From positions 1 through 4,506 of IMG/VR virus record IMGVR_UViG_2585427793_000002: a DNA stretch of 4,506 nt; one strand, given 5' to 3'. How positions within the stretch are numbered: the stretch's first letter is position 1; every line of letters starts with the position of its first letter. Positions 1 through 4,506 of the stretch are shown here, piece after piece. The DNA is from a virus (lineage: Duplodnaviria; Heunggongvirae; Uroviricota; Caudoviricetes). Below the pieces are notes generated by a model. The model saw only the letters and a program-made list of their open reading frames with translations, did not search any database and had not been told where the DNA came from. The position numbers and the translations under genes are program-made.

Positions 1-619
1 GCCAGACCGAGCCTTCAATACGTTTGTCGCCAAGGAACGTCGGAGAGCCTTCCTGTTCAATATCCTCATCAAAGGCAGCAAGTTCATCATAACCCGCCAC
101 ATCCACCGACTTTTCACGGTAGTTTTTTGCCGCTTTACCGCCCAGGCACCAGAAGCCACGACCATTGGAAAAACGCTTCATAGTGAGCGTGTTATCCCGG
201 TGCTTTTTGCCATACCACGGAGCCAGCGCCAGCAGCGACGGAATATCGCGGATGGTCGGCTCAACGTGGGTTTTCATAAAGTTCTCGGCATCACCATCCG
301 TCGGCAACCAGATAAGGGTGTTGCGCTGCTTATGCTCTATAAAGTAGGCATAAACACCCAGCAGCATTTTGGAATAACCGACACGGGCAGACTTCACCAC
401 ATTCACCTCACGGATGTAGTCGCTGCCCATCGCATTCATGATGGCCCGCTGAAAGGGCAGTGTTTCCCAGCGCCCTTCCTGGTATGCGGATTCTTTCGGG
501 AGATAGTAATTAGCATCCGCCCATTCAACGGCGGTCTGTGGCTCCGGCCTGAACAGTGAGCGAAGCCCGGCGCGGACAAAATGCCGCAGCCTGTTAACCT
601 GACTGTTCGATATATTCAC
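1..619 (-). CDS. A: Terminase large subunit gpA, N-terminal 206 codons (rest of gene lies beyond window position 1)
   Basis: Reverse complement from the GTG at 619..617 translates to (V/M)NISNSQVNRLRHFVRAGLRSLFRPEPQTAVEWADANYYLPKESAYQEGRWETLPFQRAIMNAMGSDYIREVNVVKSARVGYSKMLLGVYAYFIEHKQRN... and leaves the window as ...FDEDIEQEGSPTFLGDKRIEGSVW, matching lambda gpA as I recall it. The GTG start lies 26 nt inside the 3' end of Nu1, as in lambda. The ORF runs off the window edge, so it is absent from the supplied ORF track. Confidence 0.93.
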   Translation of the reverse strand, partial: MNISNSQVNRLRHFVRAGLRSLFRPEPQTAVEWADANYYLPKESAYQEGRWETLPFQRAIMNAMGSDYIREVNVVKSARVGYSKMLLGVYAYFIEHKQRNTLIWLPTDGDAENFMKTHVEPTIRDIPSLLALAPWYGKKHRDNTLTMKRFSNGRGFWCLGGKAAKNYREKSVDVAGYDELAAFDEDIEQEGSPTFLGDKRIEGSVW

Positions 620-1139
620 TCAGCAACCCCGGTATCAGTTCATCCAGCGCGGCTGCTTTGTTCATGGCTTTGATGATATCCCGTTTCAGGAAATCAACAT
701 GTCGGTTTTCCAGTTCCGGAAAACGCCGCTGCACCGACAGGGGGATCCCGTCGAGAATACTGGCAATTTCACCTGCGATCCGCGACAGCACGAAAGTACA
801 GAATGCGGTTTCCACCACTTCAGCGGAGTCTCTGGCATTCTTCAGTTCCTGTGCGTCGGCCTGCGCACGCGTAAGTCGATGGCGTTCGTACTCAATAGTC
901 CCTGGCTGGAGATCTGCCTCGCTGGCCTGCCGCAGTTCTTCAACCTCCCGGCGCAGCTTTTCGTTCTCAATTTCAGCATCCCTTTCGGCATACCATTTTA
1001 TGACGGCGGCAGAGTCATAAAGCACCTCATTACCCTTGCCACCGCCTCGCAGAACGGGCATTCCCTGTTCCTGCCAGTTCTGAATGGTACGGATACTCGC
1101 ACCGAAAATGTCAGCCAGCTGCTTTTTGTTGACTTCCAT
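594..1139 (-). CDS. Nu1: Terminase small subunit gpNu1 (181 aa, complete)
   Basis: ORF-track protein MEVNKKQLADIFGASIRTIQNWQEQGMPVLRGGGKGNEV...LLSEYIEQSG is lambda Nu1 essentially residue for residue (one L->I at ...ILDGIPLSV..., from memory). ATG at 1139..1137 is preceded by the lambda-type leader GTCCGTGGAATGAACA. It lies directly downstream of cosB. Confidence 0.96.
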   Translation of the reverse strand: MEVNKKQLADIFGASIRTIQNWQEQGMPVLRGGGKGNEVLYDSAAVIKWYAERDAEIENEKLRREVEELRQASEADLQPGTIEYERHRLTRAQADAQELKNARDSAEVVETAFCTFVLSRIAGEIASILDGIPLSVQRRFPELENRHVDFLKRDIIKAMNKAAALDELIPGLLSEYIEQSG

Positions 1140-1164
1140 TGTTCATTCCACGGACAAAAACAGA

Positions 1165-1278
1165 GAAAGGAAACGACAGAGGACAAAAAGCCCGTTTTCA
1201 GCATCTGTCGTTTCCTTTCTTTTCAGGGGGTGTTTTAAATAAAAACATTAAGTTACGGCGAAGAAGAACGGAAACGCC
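1165..1278. other. cosB terminase (gpNu1) binding region: R1, R2, IHF site I1 region, R3
   Basis: Three copies of the R-element core CGTTTCC/GGAAACG: R1 1165..1180 (rc TCTGTCGTTTCCTTTC), R2 ~1205..1218 (rc AAAGGAAACGACAG), R3 1263..1278 (rc GGCGTTTCCGTTCTTC). An AT-rich block at ~1230..1258 (rc ...TAACTTAATGTTTTTATTTAAAA...) sits where lambda has the IHF site I1. Sequence and spacing follow lambda cosB as recalled, with a few SNPs and a 1-nt indel between R2 and R1. Confidence 0.8.
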
Positions 1279-1311
1279 TTAAACCGGAAAATTTTCATAA
1301 ATAGCGAAAAC

Positions 1312-1333
1312 CCGCGCGCCTTCCGCCCCGTGG
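1312..1333. other. cosN (terminase nicking site) region, variant sequence
   Basis: Placed by position next to R3. Reverse complement of 1311..1331 reads ACG GGGCGG AAGGCG CGCGGG, versus lambda ACG GGGCGG CGACCT CGCGGG (memory). The segment equivalent to the 12-nt cohesive end is 1317..1328. Actual nick positions cannot be established from sequence. Confidence 0.6.
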
Positions 1334-1682
1334 CAGGCCACCCCACCGGAAGGACCCTCACAAATGAGAGCGTTTGTCATTAACATTTACAGATAAGATG
1401 ACGTACATCATTGAAACGCCATTCAGCCATATACCGGCAGCATTCGTAGTTGCACTCCGTAACTCTGCGACTAAGGTTAAAAACATGGCCCTCTTTTGCC
1501 ACCGGCAAATCTTCAATGGATTTCCCCTGCCGGTTTTTTATTTTCGTCGATGCATAACATTGCATTTACATCAATAGCGGCTATTGTCATTAGTATGTTG
1601 CATCAATGCATGGGTGGTATTGGCGGTCTTCGCCGGCCGCTTCTGTGTAGCTGCTCCCTGTGACCGGTTTTTTATTTCTCAC

Positions 1683-1719
1683 ATTACAGCAACCCCTTAG
1701 AGTGAAGGGCTGCTGTAAT
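1683..1719. other. Stable stem-loop (about 14 bp stem, 6-nt loop) just 3' of the 131-aa gene; not a canonical terminator
   Basis: ATTACAGCAACCCCTT (1683..1698) pairs with AAGGGCTGCTGTAAT (1705..1719) with one mismatch and one bulge around loop AGAGTG. It starts 6 nt downstream of the stop at 1725..1727 on the - strand. No T/U tract follows it on either strand. Confidence 0.5.
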
Positions 1720-1724
1720 GCCTG

Positions 1725-2120
1725 TTACTCACGAATCAGGCGAGCACTCTTACTATTCATTTCAATACGCGAATACTGCGGTTTACCATCAATGATGTCT
1801 GTCATTACGAACACCTCACCCGGCTGCAGTTCAACTGCACCTTCCGGTAATTTCATACCGGCAAATACCGGACAACCCGGATGACGATCATCTTCTGTTG
1901 CTTCCAGCATTGACTCACCAAACCACTCCGTCGTGGCGCGACCATCAGCTGCTTTGTAGTGGATCAAGTACTGGTTTTCGCCATCCGCATACTGCGCGCG
2001 GGCTTTAACCTCACCCCATTCATCACTGATACGCATCTCCACCAGTTGAGACAACTCAAACTTAAACGGAGCAGCATCAGCACCAATTACAATCGGTTTG
2101 TTTTCTGTTTTTTCCATCAT
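1725..2120 (-). CDS. Hypothetical acidic protein (131 aa), function unknown
   Basis: ORF-track ORF 1725..2168 trimmed to the tandem ATG ATG at 2120..2115 (MMEKTENKPIVIG...), which is preceded by AGGAGA (rc of 2124..2129). The upstream ATG at 2168 has no Shine-Dalgarno. By my count 24 Asp+Glu versus 15 Lys+Arg; no TM segment, no signal peptide, no motif I recognise. Confidence 0.7.
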   Translation of the reverse strand: MMEKTENKPIVIGADAAPFKFELSQLVEMRISDEWGEVKARAQYADGENQYLIHYKAADGRATTEWFGESMLEATEDDRHPGCPVFAGMKLPEGAVELQPGEVFVMTDIIDGKPQYSRIEMNSKSARLIRE

Positions 2121-2291
2121 CGTCTCCTGATATCGAAGCCCGTCGCCGCACCGGGCACTGATCAACATTTGAGTATTCGCGGCGACAGAAAGAATTTATT
2201 TTATTGAGTAGCCACAAACACAGAATTTCATGCTTACCGGACGCTGGCGCATCCTTCATTTTTCAGCAAAATATTCTGCTCTTACAGGCGA

Positions 2292-2474
2292 TCAGTTCTG
2301 CAGACACTGCCGAACACCGTCGACAATTTCACAGACCTGAGACGCGGTATCGAAAAGCTGGCGCGCCTTATCCAGGCTGACGCACCCCACCAATAAAAAA
2401 GGCACCAGTATCGCTACCAGTGCCCGTTTCACCGCCGTTCGCGGCATTCTGTGTGTCCAGTGTTTTCGCGCCAT
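2292..2474 (-). CDS. Putative small lipoprotein (60-aa precursor, ~30-aa mature)
   Basis: N-terminus MARKHWTHRMPRTAVKRALVAILVPFLLVG|C has a basic n-region, hydrophobic core and lipobox L-V-G-C (Cys31). The mature part CVSLDKARQLFDTASQVCEIVDGVRQCLQN has three Cys. The ATG at 2474 is 1 nt after the stop of the upstream 37-codon ORF and preceded by GGTGGTGAT. Confidence 0.55.
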   Translation of the reverse strand: MARKHWTHRMPRTAVKRALVAILVPFLLVGCVSLDKARQLFDTASQVCEIVDGVRQCLQN

Positions 2475-2475
2475 A

Positions 2476-2589
2476 TCACCACCAACGCACAGCCCAAATC
2501 AGAACAGCGACCGCCACAAGGCGAATTGCAAAGGCCGCAGCCCTTGTCAAATCAAGGCTCGCGGGAGTTTCCATTTCAATACCTTTCAT
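2476..2589 (-). CDS. Putative 37-aa membrane mini-protein (MKGIEMETPASLDLTRAAAFAIRLVAVAVLIWAVRWW)
   Basis: Found by hand translation; below the ORF-track size cut-off. ATG at 2589..2587 with GAGG 9 nt upstream; C-terminal hydrophobic helix; TGA stop at 2478..2476 sits 1 nt before the lipoprotein ATG, suggesting translational coupling. The short length makes it uncertain. Confidence 0.3.
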   Translation of the reverse strand: MKGIEMETPASLDLTRAAAFAIRLVAVAVLIWAVRWW

Positions 2590-2671
2590 AATGGACAACC
2601 TCAAAAAGAATCTTTTATACTTTCCCACGAGGATTTTCTCCCTACTCACTAATCACAATTTCCCCTTTGAC

Positions 2672-2719
2672 GTGAAAACTAAAAACCCCGGACTGTTCCC
2701 CCAGCCGGGGTTTTGTTTT
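2672..2719. terminator. Bidirectional rho-independent terminator immediately downstream of the endolysin gene
   Basis: GC-rich inverted repeat CCCCGG...CCGGGG (2686..2710; about 9 bp stem with one bulge) flanked by AAAAA (2681..2685) on the left and TTTTGTTTT (2711..2719) on the right. On the - strand the hairpin is followed by UUUUUAGUUUU and on the + strand by UUUUGUUUU. It begins 11 nt after the endolysin stop codon. Confidence 0.72.
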
Positions 2720-2721
2720 AC

Positions 2722-3099
2722 TTATCGCTTCAGCTGAAAGTGAGGTCCGTCTTTCAGCGTTTTCCAGTCCCCGCCCCATTCGATAGCGATCCCCAGCTCT
2801 GCGGCAGCCTGCTTAAATGCCTGTGCGATTTTCTCGTACAGAGGCCACTCCCATGACACCTGACTGCCAATGTAGGCCACAACATCCACCGCATCACCGG
2901 TCAGGTGGCGGCTGTTCATGGTCTGGCTTTTCCCTTCCGCAACCAGCTGTTTCTGGCGATACTTACTGCGCAGGCCTTCCGTAATACCGAAATCAACCTC
3001 CGTCAGCTCCAGCGCACGGCGAACTACAGCAACCAGCTGTGGTTTGACACCCTCCAGATTTTTTTCACTGCGACGGCTGAATCTGAATTTACCCGGCAT
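2722..3099 (-). CDS. Endolysin, L-alanyl-D-glutamate endopeptidase (peptidase M15 family, phage T5 Lys-like)
   Basis: 125 aa from the ATG at 3099 (GAGGTG 5 nt upstream; the ORF-track start at 3105 is a GTG two codons earlier). It carries a Zn-ligand pattern typical of M15 peptidases, SRHLTGDAVD ... WGGDW ... DGPHF, and overall resembles the small T5-type endolysin as I recall it. No signal peptide or SAR domain, consistent with holin-dependent release. It is the last gene of the cassette before the terminator. Confidence 0.85.
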   Translation of the reverse strand: MPGKFRFSRRSEKNLEGVKPQLVAVVRRALELTEVDFGITEGLRSKYRQKQLVAEGKSQTMNSRHLTGDAVDVVAYIGSQVSWEWPLYEKIAQAFKQAAAELGIAIEWGGDWKTLKDGPHFQLKR

Positions 3100-3101
3100 A
3101 T

Positions 3102-3377
3102 TCACCTCAACAATGGAAAGATTTTTGTGACGTTCCCGCGTGCGCGTATCACCAGCACGCAGAACAGCAGATTAAAAAACACTTCCAGCCAGCCCGTTGC
3201 TAACGGGCGACCACACAGATAGCTGAGGGGCGCAAAGGCATACAGCAGCATCAGCAGCCAGGCCAGCCATGACACCAGCGGTTTATGTCTGGAATCACGG
3301 CGACGATAAAAAAAGAGCGTCAGCACGATAACCGTGCATAACGCCACATTCAGCAATCCGGGAAGGTTACTTAACAT
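3102..3377 (-). CDS. Small 3-TM membrane protein of the lysis cassette (putative holin or antiholin), 91 aa
   Basis: ORF-track ORF 3102..3431 trimmed to the internal ATG at 3377..3375 (MLSNLPGLLNVALCTVIVLTLFFY...), which has a strong GGAGGAGG box 5-8 nt upstream; the track start at 3431 would overlap the upstream gene by 65 nt. Three hydrophobic helices and a basic C-terminus (RARGNVTKIFPLLR). Its TGA stop (3104..3102) abuts the endolysin start. Confidence 0.6.
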   Translation of the reverse strand: MLSNLPGLLNVALCTVIVLTLFFYRRRDSRHKPLVSWLAWLLMLLYAFAPLSYLCGRPLATGWLEVFFNLLFCVLVIRARGNVTKIFPLLR

Positions 3378-3759
3378 TGCCGCCTCCTCCACCCCGCAGG
3401 CGGGAGAACACACCGGACACCAGCGATGCAATATCCTGCTGGTGGATGAACGAGAGAATCTTCACCGACACCACCGAGACCAGCACCGCGCAAAGCGCAT
3501 CTGCTGATGTACCGTCATACCCTGTTTTTGATGCAATCCAGGCTGACAGCACACGCGCTCCCAGCACGCCGACAATAAACGACACCAGAAAATGTGCCAC
3601 CACGCGCCAGACTGAAAGTGACTGTGGCATCGTTGCCACAAATAACGCCCCGGCGAACGCGCCAAACACAATCCCGAAATCCATTCCGGTAAACAGCCCG
3701 AATACCGTCGCGCCACCCAGCGCCGCAGCCGTGCCGGAACCGGATAAGGGTTCAGACAT
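3367..3759 (-). CDS. Gly/Ala-rich 4-TM membrane protein, putative holin (130 aa)
   Basis: ATG at 3759 preceded by AGGAGG (rc of 3764..3769). About four hydrophobic helices (TAAALGGATVFGLFTG, FGIVFGAFAGALFVA, VVAHFLVSFIVGVLGARVL, ALCAVLVSVVSVKILSFI) and a Gly-rich charged tail. It is the first gene of a cassette ending in an endolysin, and its 3' end overlaps the next gene by 11 nt. Holin role is inferred from context, not homology. Confidence 0.65.
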   Translation of the reverse strand: MSEPLSGSGTAAALGGATVFGLFTGMDFGIVFGAFAGALFVATMPQSLSVWRVVAHFLVSFIVGVLGARVLSAWIASKTGYDGTSADALCAVLVSVVSVKILSFIHQQDIASLVSGVFSRLRGGGGGNVK

Positions 3760-3815
3760 ACTTCCTCCTGAAAATAAAAAAGGGCCACCAGCGACCCGTA
3801 AAAAAACACCCCGTC

Positions 3816-3837
3816 AAAGGCATCCGCAGATGCCTTT
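3816..3837. other. Perfect hairpin (9-bp stem, 4-nt loop) in the spacer between the small ORF and the holin gene
   Basis: AAAGGCATC (3816..3824) - CGCA - GATGCCTTT (3829..3837). On the - strand RNA the stem is followed by GACGGGGUG and only then U7, so it is not a textbook intrinsic terminator. Confidence 0.45.
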
Positions 3838-3846
3838 TGTGTGATG

Positions 3847-3999
3847 TTATTCAGATTTACGCAGTAAAGGCCGGAGCACGACCAGCGCCATCACCACCAG
3901 CACACCATCTGCCAGCACCGACATCAGTCGTCCGGTGAAATCAACCACCACTACCAGAAACAACAGGATGACAGCCAGCACAAGGCGCGCACTTTTCAC
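3847..3999 (-). CDS. Putative 50-aa two-helix membrane protein (GTG start), translationally coupled to the TerB-like gene
   Basis: Found by hand translation; below the ORF-track size cut-off: (M)KSARLVLAVILLFLVVVVDFTGRLMSVLADGVLVVMALVVLRPLLRKSE. The GTG at 3999..3997 overlaps the upstream TGA stop (GTGA), with GGAG 8 nt upstream. Two hydrophobic helices and a charged C-terminus. No ATG start with a comparable ribosome-binding site. Confidence 0.35.
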   Translation of the reverse strand: MKSARLVLAVILLFLVVVVDFTGRLMSVLADGVLVVMALVVLRPLLRKSE

Positions 4000-4421
4000 A
4001 GGTACTGCTCCAGCGGCAACTGCAGCGCCTGCGCAATTTTCTTCAGTTGCGCTTCTTCTTCCTGAGCGATACCGTCCTGGTCAGCGATATCCAGACACAG
4101 GCACAGCACATTAACTGCATCATCAGTACCGGCAACATCAGCCAGCTGACGAAGAGCTTCGGCATTGGCAGAACGCGGCGACGCTTCATAACGGGCGCGG
4201 ATATTTGCACTCATTTGTGCAATCTCACCGGAGAACGGCGCAAAGGCAGGAAGTGCTGCAATGGTTTTTTCCAGTACCGCGATTTCTTTCGCGTCACAGG
4301 TGCCGTCAGCGTATGCAATGGAGTACGCGCCCCAGACGGTCGCCTCCACTGCGTCACGGTTCTCCATCTTCTTCACTTCGGTAATGGCCTTGCGGGTTTT
4401 CTTTTTGAAAATACCAAACAT
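3996..4421 (-). CDS. TerB-like (tellurite-resistance TerB family) helical protein, 141 aa
   Basis: ATG at 4421 with AAGGA about 9 nt upstream. The N-terminus MFGIFKKK and two 'hydrophobic-x-DG-x(3-5)-acidic' repeats (AYADGTCDAKEIAVLEK and ADQDGIAQEEEAQLKKIAQALQL) follow the pattern I recall for TerB (compare SDGNFDDDEKSAVREIARSLGF in plasmid TerB). Assignment is by pattern recognition only. Confidence 0.7.
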   Translation of the reverse strand: MFGIFKKKTRKAITEVKKMENRDAVEATVWGAYSIAYADGTCDAKEIAVLEKTIAALPAFAPFSGEIAQMSANIRARYEASPRSANAEALRQLADVAGTDDAVNVLCLCLDIADQDGIAQEEEAQLKKIAQALQLPLEQYL

Positions 4422-4506
4422 CGTGACTTTTCCTTTTAGTGGGTGAGCCTGCGCCCGGGGGTGACCAGCCCACAGAGAAAGTCACACTGACCATCCCGTA
4501 AGCTCA

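Follow-up and report, generated by a model that had tools for sequence, protein, structure and literature searches.

In a 4,506-nt stretch of viral DNA (positions 1 to 4,506 of the IMG/VR record IMGVR_UViG_2585427793_000002, Caudoviricetes), referred to below as the window, a 60-codon gene for a predicted lipoprotein follows the holin and endolysin genes at the place where lambda carries its spanin genes Rz and Rz1. The window is the late region of a lambdoid Escherichia coli prophage. Judging from the sequence, the genomic company and the conservation of this gene, we consider it reasonably probable that its product is a late-expressed, stand-alone protein for the outer-membrane step of lysis, encoded by the last gene of a lysis cassette of the phiP27 type, which is very common among E. 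coli prophages. The lipoprotein resembles an outer-membrane spanin subunit (o-spanin) without an inner-membrane subunit (i-spanin), and is known once in the literature, where it was given a spurious partner (Kongari et al. 2018).

No identifiable spanin was reported for 91 of 677 phages of Gram-negative hosts (~13%; PMC6139136), and of the ways in which such phages may break the outer membrane, only that of disruptin has since been worked out. The cassette described here provides a genetically tractable case in E. coli, in which one slot is occupied in some phages by a complete two-component spanin and in others by a lone lipoprotein. If our reading is true, a simpler route to outer-membrane breakage, using one lipoprotein, would replace the periplasm-spanning fusion machine, and the carriage of the cassette by Stx2e, Stx2k and enterotoxigenic E. 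coli (ETEC) prophages means that it bears on the release of toxin and virions.

The lipoprotein gene and its position

The gene begins at ATG 2474, 1 nt past the stop codon of a small open reading frame (ORF) for a membrane protein. A preliminary description of the window had read it as a 60-codon lipoprotein gene with the lipobox LVGC, a mature part of about 30 residues and three cysteines, and our analysis bears this out: the lipobox and the cysteines (Cys31, Cys48 and Cys57) are invariant across relatives. The family comprises 136 clusters at 90% identity, every one of them from Enterobacteriaceae (Escherichia, Salmonella, Citrobacter, Cronobacter and Lelliottia). Since Met1 is invariant in these relatives whereas Thr, Val, Ile or Ala often stands at position 10 in place of Met, the 60-amino-acid (aa) reading is the right one, and the 51-aa call common in databases cannot be general. 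Among 43 distinct coding sequences, the ratio of nonsynonymous to synonymous polymorphism (pN/pS) was 0.19 for the whole gene and 0.13 for the mature part; the gene is real and under purifying selection. In databases, the family is annotated only as hypothetical proteins with inconsistent starts, as might be expected of decaying or non-functional ORFs left over between the lysis and packaging modules. However, the low pN/pS values, the invariance of the lipobox and the cysteines across genera, and an ORF that is intact in nearly all loci make such a leftover extremely improbable.

At position +2, most relatives have Val or Ala and none has Asp, which, by the established +2 rule for lipoprotein sorting in E. 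coli, points to an outer-membrane location; lipidation would occur at Cys31. AlphaFold2 modelled the protein as a single helix spanning residues 12-59, with moderate confidence (mean predicted local distance difference test score, pLDDT, of 66), and the mature lipopeptide is weakly amphipathic with a net charge of -1. The signal peptide is unusual: its n-region of about 17 residues is basic and conserved as strongly as the mature part. Two subfamilies can be told apart, CVSLDKARQLFDTASQVCEIVDGVRQCxQN and CVSLEKARNWFGVAADVCDTVKKIKDRCNDRK, both of which retain the predicted acylated cysteine as well as cysteines at mature positions 18 and 27/28.

A search of 1.84 billion representatives with a profile returned only 23 clusters, all of the lipoprotein's own small family, and provided no bridge to a named one. 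The lipoprotein matched zero Pfam-A families at E<=1 and nothing in PADLOC; the NCBIfam scan gave only a sub-threshold QseG match to the signal peptide, and PHROGs gave phrog_7528, a family without a function, and a weak match to phrog_1275 (E=0.048) whose alignment (residues 13-48) covers chiefly the signal peptide. Matches in a profile search of PDB sequences were at chance level only, and no paper was retrieved when full texts were searched for the peptide strings and PHROG ids. Nor did the families named for comparison in the preliminary description provide a homologue, as neither the lipoprotein nor the small membrane protein matched a Cor, Llp, Bor or entericidin family in Pfam, NCBIfam or PADLOC; a colicin lysis family was not matched either. 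Two further candidate features were rejected: (i) an Lpp-like C-terminal Arg-Lys, which is confined to the second subfamily; and (ii) Cys55 in the periplasmic loop of the Phage_holin_3_7 protein as a disulfide partner, which inspection by eye found to be absent in the lipoprotein-bearing Salmonella locus L010.

We surveyed about 100 lipoprotein loci from IMG/VR, genomes and assemblies; the scan of genome contigs yielded three lipoprotein loci only, two of them usefully divergent. In all of the ~100 loci, the lipoprotein gene is the last gene of the holin-endolysin cassette. It lies 1 nt after the small membrane-protein ORF in about 50 loci, which is the architecture of the window, and 14-15 nt after the M15 endolysin gene, with neither a terminator nor the small ORF, in about 31 (e.g., L006-L009). 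Other arrangements include a distance of 3 nt from the endolysin gene in a three-gene cassette with a Phage_holin_3_1 holin (L116), an overlap with the end of a GH108 endolysin gene in Lelliottia (L012), and an ATGA overlap with a KilA-N-like gene in Salmonella (L010). Across the survey, the lipoprotein gene follows three types of holin (Phage_holin_8 plus Phage_holin_3_7, Phage_holin_3_1, and another in L012), accompanies two types of endolysin (M15 and GH108), and has at least three packaging modules downstream; furthermore, it is present both in the myovirus-type phiP27 and in the lambda-like siphovirus phiSTEC1575-Stx2k. The gene is linked to lysis and not to tails or packaging. phiP27 is reportedly an inducible, transducing phage. 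A paper on 'P27' (PMC4591643) was rejected as a source for phiP27, the phage described there being 27-delta-tox.

The preliminary description had placed the lipoprotein exactly where Rz/Rz1 would be expected, a claim borne out by the alternation of the gene with spanin genes in this slot. Loci L112-L115 encode distant homologues of the two holins of the window (Phage_holin_8 and Phage_holin_3_7; ~30% identity) and a GH108 endolysin, followed by the same terminator and small ORF, and then by Rz with an embedded Rz1 where the lipoprotein gene sits in the window. In mEp390 and HK639, a related two-holin cassette is followed by a 91-aa i-spanin (phrog_1026), an o-spanin (phrog_1275) and gp53, while L118 has a GH108 endolysin gene, the lipoprotein gene and then a gp53 homologue (61% identity). 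Locus L076, with holins, endolysin, small ORF, lipoprotein, bor (on the opposite strand) and Nu1, has the lambda order with the lipoprotein in place of Rz/Rz1. Phage GER2 has Rz/Rz1, and its lipoprotein homologue is a frameshifted remnant.

In loci with an intact lipoprotein gene, we found no match to Rz, Rz1 or the mEp390-type spanins. The possibility, raised in the preliminary description, that normal spanin genes lie elsewhere in the phage was not borne out in the complete genomes of phiP27 and phiSTEC1575-Stx2k, in which the late strand encoded no further lipoprotein resembling an o-spanin, and neither annotation nor homology revealed a cognate i-spanin. In a generic lipobox scan of ~80 loci (+/-10 kb), Bor was the only other recurrent lipoprotein, the remainder being sporadic morons, and no recurrent protein with an N-terminal transmembrane domain (TMD) and a periplasmic domain was seen on the lipoprotein's strand from -4 kb to +3 kb. 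The lipoprotein gene is interchangeable in position with spanin genes and has no partner gene. Among 279 Stx phages, Rz is missing in two only, and a metallopeptidase endolysin is likewise present in two only (PMC8136144); we infer that these are the same two phages.

The lipoprotein might instead regulate lysis, tuning or licensing its timing, for instance by sensing or holding the holin or the endolysin from the periplasm, with the outer membrane failing without any dedicated protein. Such a regulator would be in keeping with a gene co-transcribed within the lysis cassette, with small membrane-associated lysis accessory proteins such as Lcc6 of LambdaSo, and with the existence of spanin-less phages. 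Yet the lipoprotein gene replaces spanin genes at the same junctions and is not added to them, and its occurrence with three types of holin and two of endolysin speaks against a ligand dedicated to one particular holin or endolysin; we therefore regard a regulatory role as unlikely.

The small membrane-protein ORF and the published phiP27 spanin

The small ORF upstream of the lipoprotein gene had been described as 37 codons long (ATG 2589 to the stop at 2476; C-terminal end AAAFAIRLVAVAVLIWAVRWW), with a hydrophobic helix at its C terminus. The ORF and its C-terminal TMD stand, while the start is probably to be moved to GTG 2628. An alignment of six relatives revealed a conserved start column 13 codons 5' of the ATG, occupied by GTG in the window and by ATG in L109 and L110; each aligned copy has a GGAG-type Shine-Dalgarno sequence at this start, and a 3-nt in-frame indel falls within the 13-codon extension. 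Taken together, these features make a product of 50 aa more likely than one of 37. With the extension, the match to phrog_4493 has E=9e-24, versus 2e-16 without it. The 50-aa product has a basic N terminus (GKYKRFFLRLSIMKG...) and a TMD reaching its final residue, from which an N-in topology with no more than three periplasmic residues is predicted. Scans of this ORF against Pfam, NCBIfam and PADLOC were without a match, and PHROGs yielded only phrog_4493, a function-less family.

That the small membrane protein and the lipoprotein constitute a minimal two-component spanin, with the former as the inner-membrane subunit, was one of two alternatives offered in the preliminary description, which had also judged the ORF too short for an i-spanin; its near-complete lack of a periplasmic part agrees with that judgement. 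In i-spanins the TMD is N-terminal and a sizeable periplasmic domain comes after it, whereas the TMD of the small protein is C-terminal and its N terminus basic. The two ORFs are indeed only 1 nt apart, with a ribosome-binding site shared at the junction, and Kongari et al. (PMC6139136) allow that unconventional inner-membrane topologies might act as i-spanins. However, the combined periplasmic length of the pair would be only ~30 aa, and the small ORF is missing from about one-third of the lipoprotein loci: from ~31 with the lipoprotein gene directly after the endolysin gene, and from phiP27, L012 and L116. Moreover, it precedes complete, genuine Rz/Rz1 genes: in L112-L115 it is 93% identical and joined to them by the identical TGATATG junction, more diverged copies precede Rz/Rz1 in L005 and phage GER2, behind lysozyme-type cassettes, and the small ORF also lies upstream of Rz/Rz1 in L098. 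A minimal pair is, on these grounds, very improbable.

The block made up of the terminator and the small ORF shares 93% identity between cassettes whose holins share ~30%, and it appears to be one separate mobile module that is accessory and not the lipoprotein's partner. The last codons of the small ORF (TGG TGG TGA) and the next T are conserved before whichever gene follows, the sole exception being TGACATG in STEC1575, and this 3' end probably serves as the ribosome-binding site of the following gene for the outer-membrane step. The small protein itself may be a late-expressed lysis accessory or a passenger. We also observed that small ORFs of 28-50 aa, each with a single TMD, cluster in the gap between the endolysin gene and the gene for the outer-membrane step, a hot spot where some of these ORFs are paralogues (phrog_4493, phrog_1115, phrog_3246 and phrog_12997); L005 has four consecutively (3005-3554), and others lie 5' of the lipoprotein gene in L039, L057 and L069.

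In the survey by Kongari et al. (2018; PMC6139136), phiP27 was assigned a two-component spanin of the 'separated' kind, whose 62 periplasmic residues make it shorter than any other two-component spanin. The o-spanin of this pair (20706-20861; periplasmic length 30 aa, 83% helix; PMC6139136) is a member of the lipoprotein family and 92% identical to the protein of the window, its published start being Met10, a residue unconserved in relatives. The i-spanin (20348-20542, 64 aa, TTG start; PMC6139136) is found in phiP27 only and has no PHROG family; it is antisense to a 90-aa ORF (phiP27 20335-20604; L001/L093) that has a full-length match to phrog_36812 and is 45% identical in L092. Because the published i-spanin ORF is restricted to phiP27 and antisense to a conserved gene, its assignment is an artefact, leaving the lipoprotein an orphan. 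The coding sequence annotated as L32 in phiP27 (51 aa, 20630-20785) is an out-of-frame overlapping ORF and not the lipoprotein. In pPE4 the lipoprotein gene is unannotated, as is the frameshifted remnant in GER2. The record is thereby corrected with respect to (i) the phiP27 i-spanin artefact; (ii) the 51-aa start call; and (iii) the missing gene annotations in some records.

Late expression and possible mode of action

Folding on both strands confirmed the bidirectional terminator that had been noted directly after the endolysin gene. The hairpin, AAAACCCCGGCUGGGGGAACAGUCCGGGGUUUUU, folds with -23.1 and -22.5 kcal/mol on the two strands (z -4.1 and -4.5), 0 of 200 shuffles reached equal folding, and relatives preserve the stem by compensatory changes, e.g., CCCCAG/CUGGGG in Yersinia-type loci. 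As the preliminary description had stated, no sigma-70-like promoter was found on the minus strand between the terminator and the small ORFs. Its suggestion that expression depends on Q-mediated read-through is also the natural expectation, since the packaging genes Nu1 and A need the same late transcript. The lipoprotein gene would then be transcribed only within the Q-antiterminated late transcript, which would read through both this terminator and a second hairpin, inside the lipoprotein gene, to Nu1/A.

The intragenic hairpin, located within signal-peptide codons, folds with -19.3 kcal/mol (z -5.5). Its stem is nucleotide-identical even in the Lelliottia homologue, whose protein is 59% identical, and among five divergent homologues the proportion of identical residues encoded by identical codons was 71% in the hairpin stretch versus 36-42% elsewhere. 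In L116 the equivalent position is taken by another hairpin, and in phiSTEC1575 the substitution L23P converts a G.U pair of the hairpin to G-C. This excess of synonymous conservation suggests a selected RNA or DNA element, which may be a putative intragenic terminator or attenuator, acting as a fail-safe against a dangerous product made without Q. A hairpin at this place would suit a product whose leaky synthesis in lysogens has to be prevented, and hence a role in lysis.

Cor of phi80 and N15 and Llp of T5 are small receptor-blocking lipoproteins that are genetically linked to the receptor-binding/tail module of the phage. The second alternative of the preliminary description had been an exclusion moron of this type, and more generally the lipoprotein could be a late-expressed outer-membrane moron for superinfection exclusion or receptor masking, or for host conversion in the manner of lambda Bor. 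Like Cor, Llp and Bor, it is a small phage-encoded lipoprotein, predicted to reach the outer membrane and endowed with cysteines, and the terminator ahead of the small ORF and lipoprotein pair looks moron-like. Nevertheless, the lipoprotein has no sequence match to these proteins and no promoter; about one-third of the loci are without the terminator, the gene there being just 14-15 nt from the endolysin gene, and in general it lies <=15 nt from, or overlaps, the preceding late gene. In addition, it is linked to lysis modules, not to tail genes, in phages with unrelated tails, it alternates with spanins, and Bor is separately present in seven or eight loci (on the opposite strand in some). As the intragenic terminator-like hairpin is also hard to square with expression in a lysogen, we consider a moron quite unlikely.

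For the outer-membrane step, the sequence of events that we envisage is as follows. The lipoprotein would be exported, acquire its lipid at Cys31 and, after cleavage by signal peptidase II, move on to the outer membrane; there, once the endolysin has removed the wall, the 30-residue, largely helical peptide with its two periplasmic cysteines would perform or enable outer-membrane breakage, replacing a two-component spanin without a recognisable inner-membrane subunit. Candidate mechanisms are (i) a disulfide-linked oligomer of the lipopeptide that directly destabilises the outer membrane, as colicin lysis lipoproteins do; and (ii) cooperation of the lipopeptide with the holin or a host protein. 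A considerably more tentative proposal is that a single 30-residue, disulfide-bearing lipopeptide could be sufficient for the outer-membrane step, perhaps aided by its long, basic and highly conserved signal peptide, which would stay behind in the inner membrane. The lipopeptide would then be a third mechanistic class of disruptor beside spanins and disruptin, guarded by the hairpin against leaky expression.

Comparison with known systems shows both likenesses and differences. The lipoprotein gene has the slot of lambda Rz/Rz1, after the endolysin gene and before bor/cos/Nu1, and its product has, like Rz1, a precursor of ~60 aa, a signal peptidase II signal, predicted outer-membrane sorting and periplasmic cysteines. 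It differs in that the gene is separate and not embedded, in that no Rz-like inner-membrane subunit accompanies it, and in its predicted helical mature part without a proline-rich stretch, a dissimilarity to Rz1 already recognised in the preliminary description; similarity is confined to the signal peptide. The cassette family (homologues of Phage_holin_8 and Phage_holin_3_7), the slot and a gp53-like downstream gene are shared with mEp390/HK639, although both spanin subunits are present there and hhalign found nothing in common in the mature part. The best functional analogy for a lone lipopeptide is provided by the colicin lysis proteins, or bacteriocin release proteins, stand-alone lipoproteins of ~28-35 mature residues that permeabilise the envelope without an inner-membrane partner. 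Unlike these, the lipoprotein has no match to Pfam Lysis_col at E<=1, is encoded in a phage late operon and not in a colicin operon, and belongs to a family that is predicted to be helical and has two extra conserved cysteines. A single gene for the outer-membrane step is also found in the case of u-spanins (T1 gp11 type) and disruptin (phiKT gp28), the latter of which is not known to be a lipoprotein. u-Spanins carry a C-terminal TMD reaching the inner membrane, whereas the mature lipopeptide ends in ...VRQCLQN, without a C-terminal hydrophobic segment. Disruptin is a cationic peptide (bioRxiv 10.1101/515445), in contrast to the lipopeptide, which has a negative net charge and is predicted to be lipid-anchored.

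With described o-spanins, the lipoprotein shares a lipobox without Asp at +2, the location in a lysis cassette and two conserved cysteines that are predicted to be periplasmic, a near-universal spanin feature (PMC6139136); it has no cognate i-spanin, no envelope-bridging length and no homology to a described o-spanin. Several points weigh against a role of the lipoprotein in the outer-membrane step. A mature part of 30 residues is too short to bridge the periplasm, and no inner-membrane subunit accompanies the lipoprotein, so that the accepted mechanism of spanins, in which a bridging complex fuses the membranes, is not applicable in that form. In hhalign comparisons, which aligned chiefly the signal peptide and the lipobox, the probability was 15% with Rz1 and 1.5% with the o-spanin of mEp390. 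The family is known from sequence alone, and the loci are mostly close relatives that represent perhaps 6-8 independent contexts. Furthermore, since ~13% of phages are spanin-less, a spanin-less cassette is no proof that the lipoprotein fills this role, and the position after the endolysin gene also hosts cargo genes, e.g., LT-II in Rac-SA53.

Neighbouring genes, distribution and the 24-nt element

The features of the window are compiled in Table 1. Every gene lies on the minus strand, in the order TerB/TciA-like gene, DUF3927/TciB-like gene, two holin genes, M15 endolysin gene, the region of the small ORF and the lipoprotein gene, phrog_1935 ORF, Nu1 and the start of gpA. An Rfam scan of the window gave no credible match.

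Table 1. Coordinates of genes and sequence elements in the window
Feature	Position	Strand	Basis or remark
TerB/TciA-like gene	4421-3996	minus	
DUF3927/TciB-like gene	3999-3847	minus	
Phage_holin_8 holin-family protein, 130 aa	3367..3759	minus	Pfam E=3e-23; phrog_198
Phage_holin_3_7 holin-family protein, 91 aa from ATG 3377	3102..3377	minus	Pfam E=2e-21; phrog_217
M15 endolysin (L-alanyl-D-glutamate peptidase type)	2722..3105	minus	Pfam Peptidase_M15_4 E=8e-13; phrog_465 E=1e-75
Bidirectional intrinsic terminator, 3' of endolysin gene	~2680-2712	both	folding and terminator scan
Small membrane-protein ORF, probably 50 codons from GTG 2628	2476..2628	minus	basic N terminus, C-terminal TMD; phrog_4493, homologues, start-column alignment
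Lipoprotein gene, 60 codons plus stop	2292..2474	minus	ORF; phrog_7528 full length, E=1.5e-35
Predicted lipoprotein signal peptide, aa 1-30	2385-2474	minus	
Predicted mature lipopeptide, C31-N60, 30 aa	2295-2384	minus	
Lipobox L28-V29-G30-C31	2382..2393	minus	residue +2 Val (Ala in some relatives)
Terminator-like hairpin and U-run in signal-peptide codons (ALVAILVPFLL)	2390..2425	minus	terminator scan, folding
24-nt near-palindromic element	2257..2280	minus	~12 nt 3' of lipoprotein stop
phrog_1935 ORF, 130-147 aa	2168/2117-1725	minus	
Lambda-type Nu1	1139-594	minus	gpA start beyond

E. coli chromosomes hold identical copies of a 561-nt query (window 2200-2760), and sequence matching this region was found in 341 of 5426 complete E. 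coli genomes (~6%), Stx2e, Stx2k and ETEC prophages being among those that carry it. The first two genes on the minus strand (3847-4421) are a P1 TciA-like gene with a TerB domain, ~80% identical in DNA sequence to P1 tciA, and a TciB-like gene (DUF3927); this pair sits between the tRNA/Q region and the holin genes, which is the position of stx in phiP27 and phiSTEC1575-Stx2k. Downstream, the phrog_1935 ORF usually accompanies the lipoprotein gene and occurs in 95-aa and 130-aa forms with differing C termini; neither a TMD nor a signal peptide was found in its product. Rac-SA53 (L095; KU052037.1, 22191-24628) has a cassette related to the two-holin one, with the LT-IIa enterotoxin genes immediately behind the endolysin gene, where neither a spanin gene nor the lipoprotein gene is found. 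Locus L003 (PP818812.1, 'Actinobacillus phage vB_Apl-pPE4') shares 91% DNA identity with E. coli prophages over the region, and the host assignment of this phage looks doubtful.

The near-palindromic element downstream of the lipoprotein gene, AGCAGAATATTTTGCTGAAAAATG, is present as an exact copy in 84 of the 115 loci fetched. It may mark the 3' boundary of the lysis module or be a protein-binding site. In L005, a copy (3684-3707) follows a lysozyme gene instead of the lipoprotein gene.

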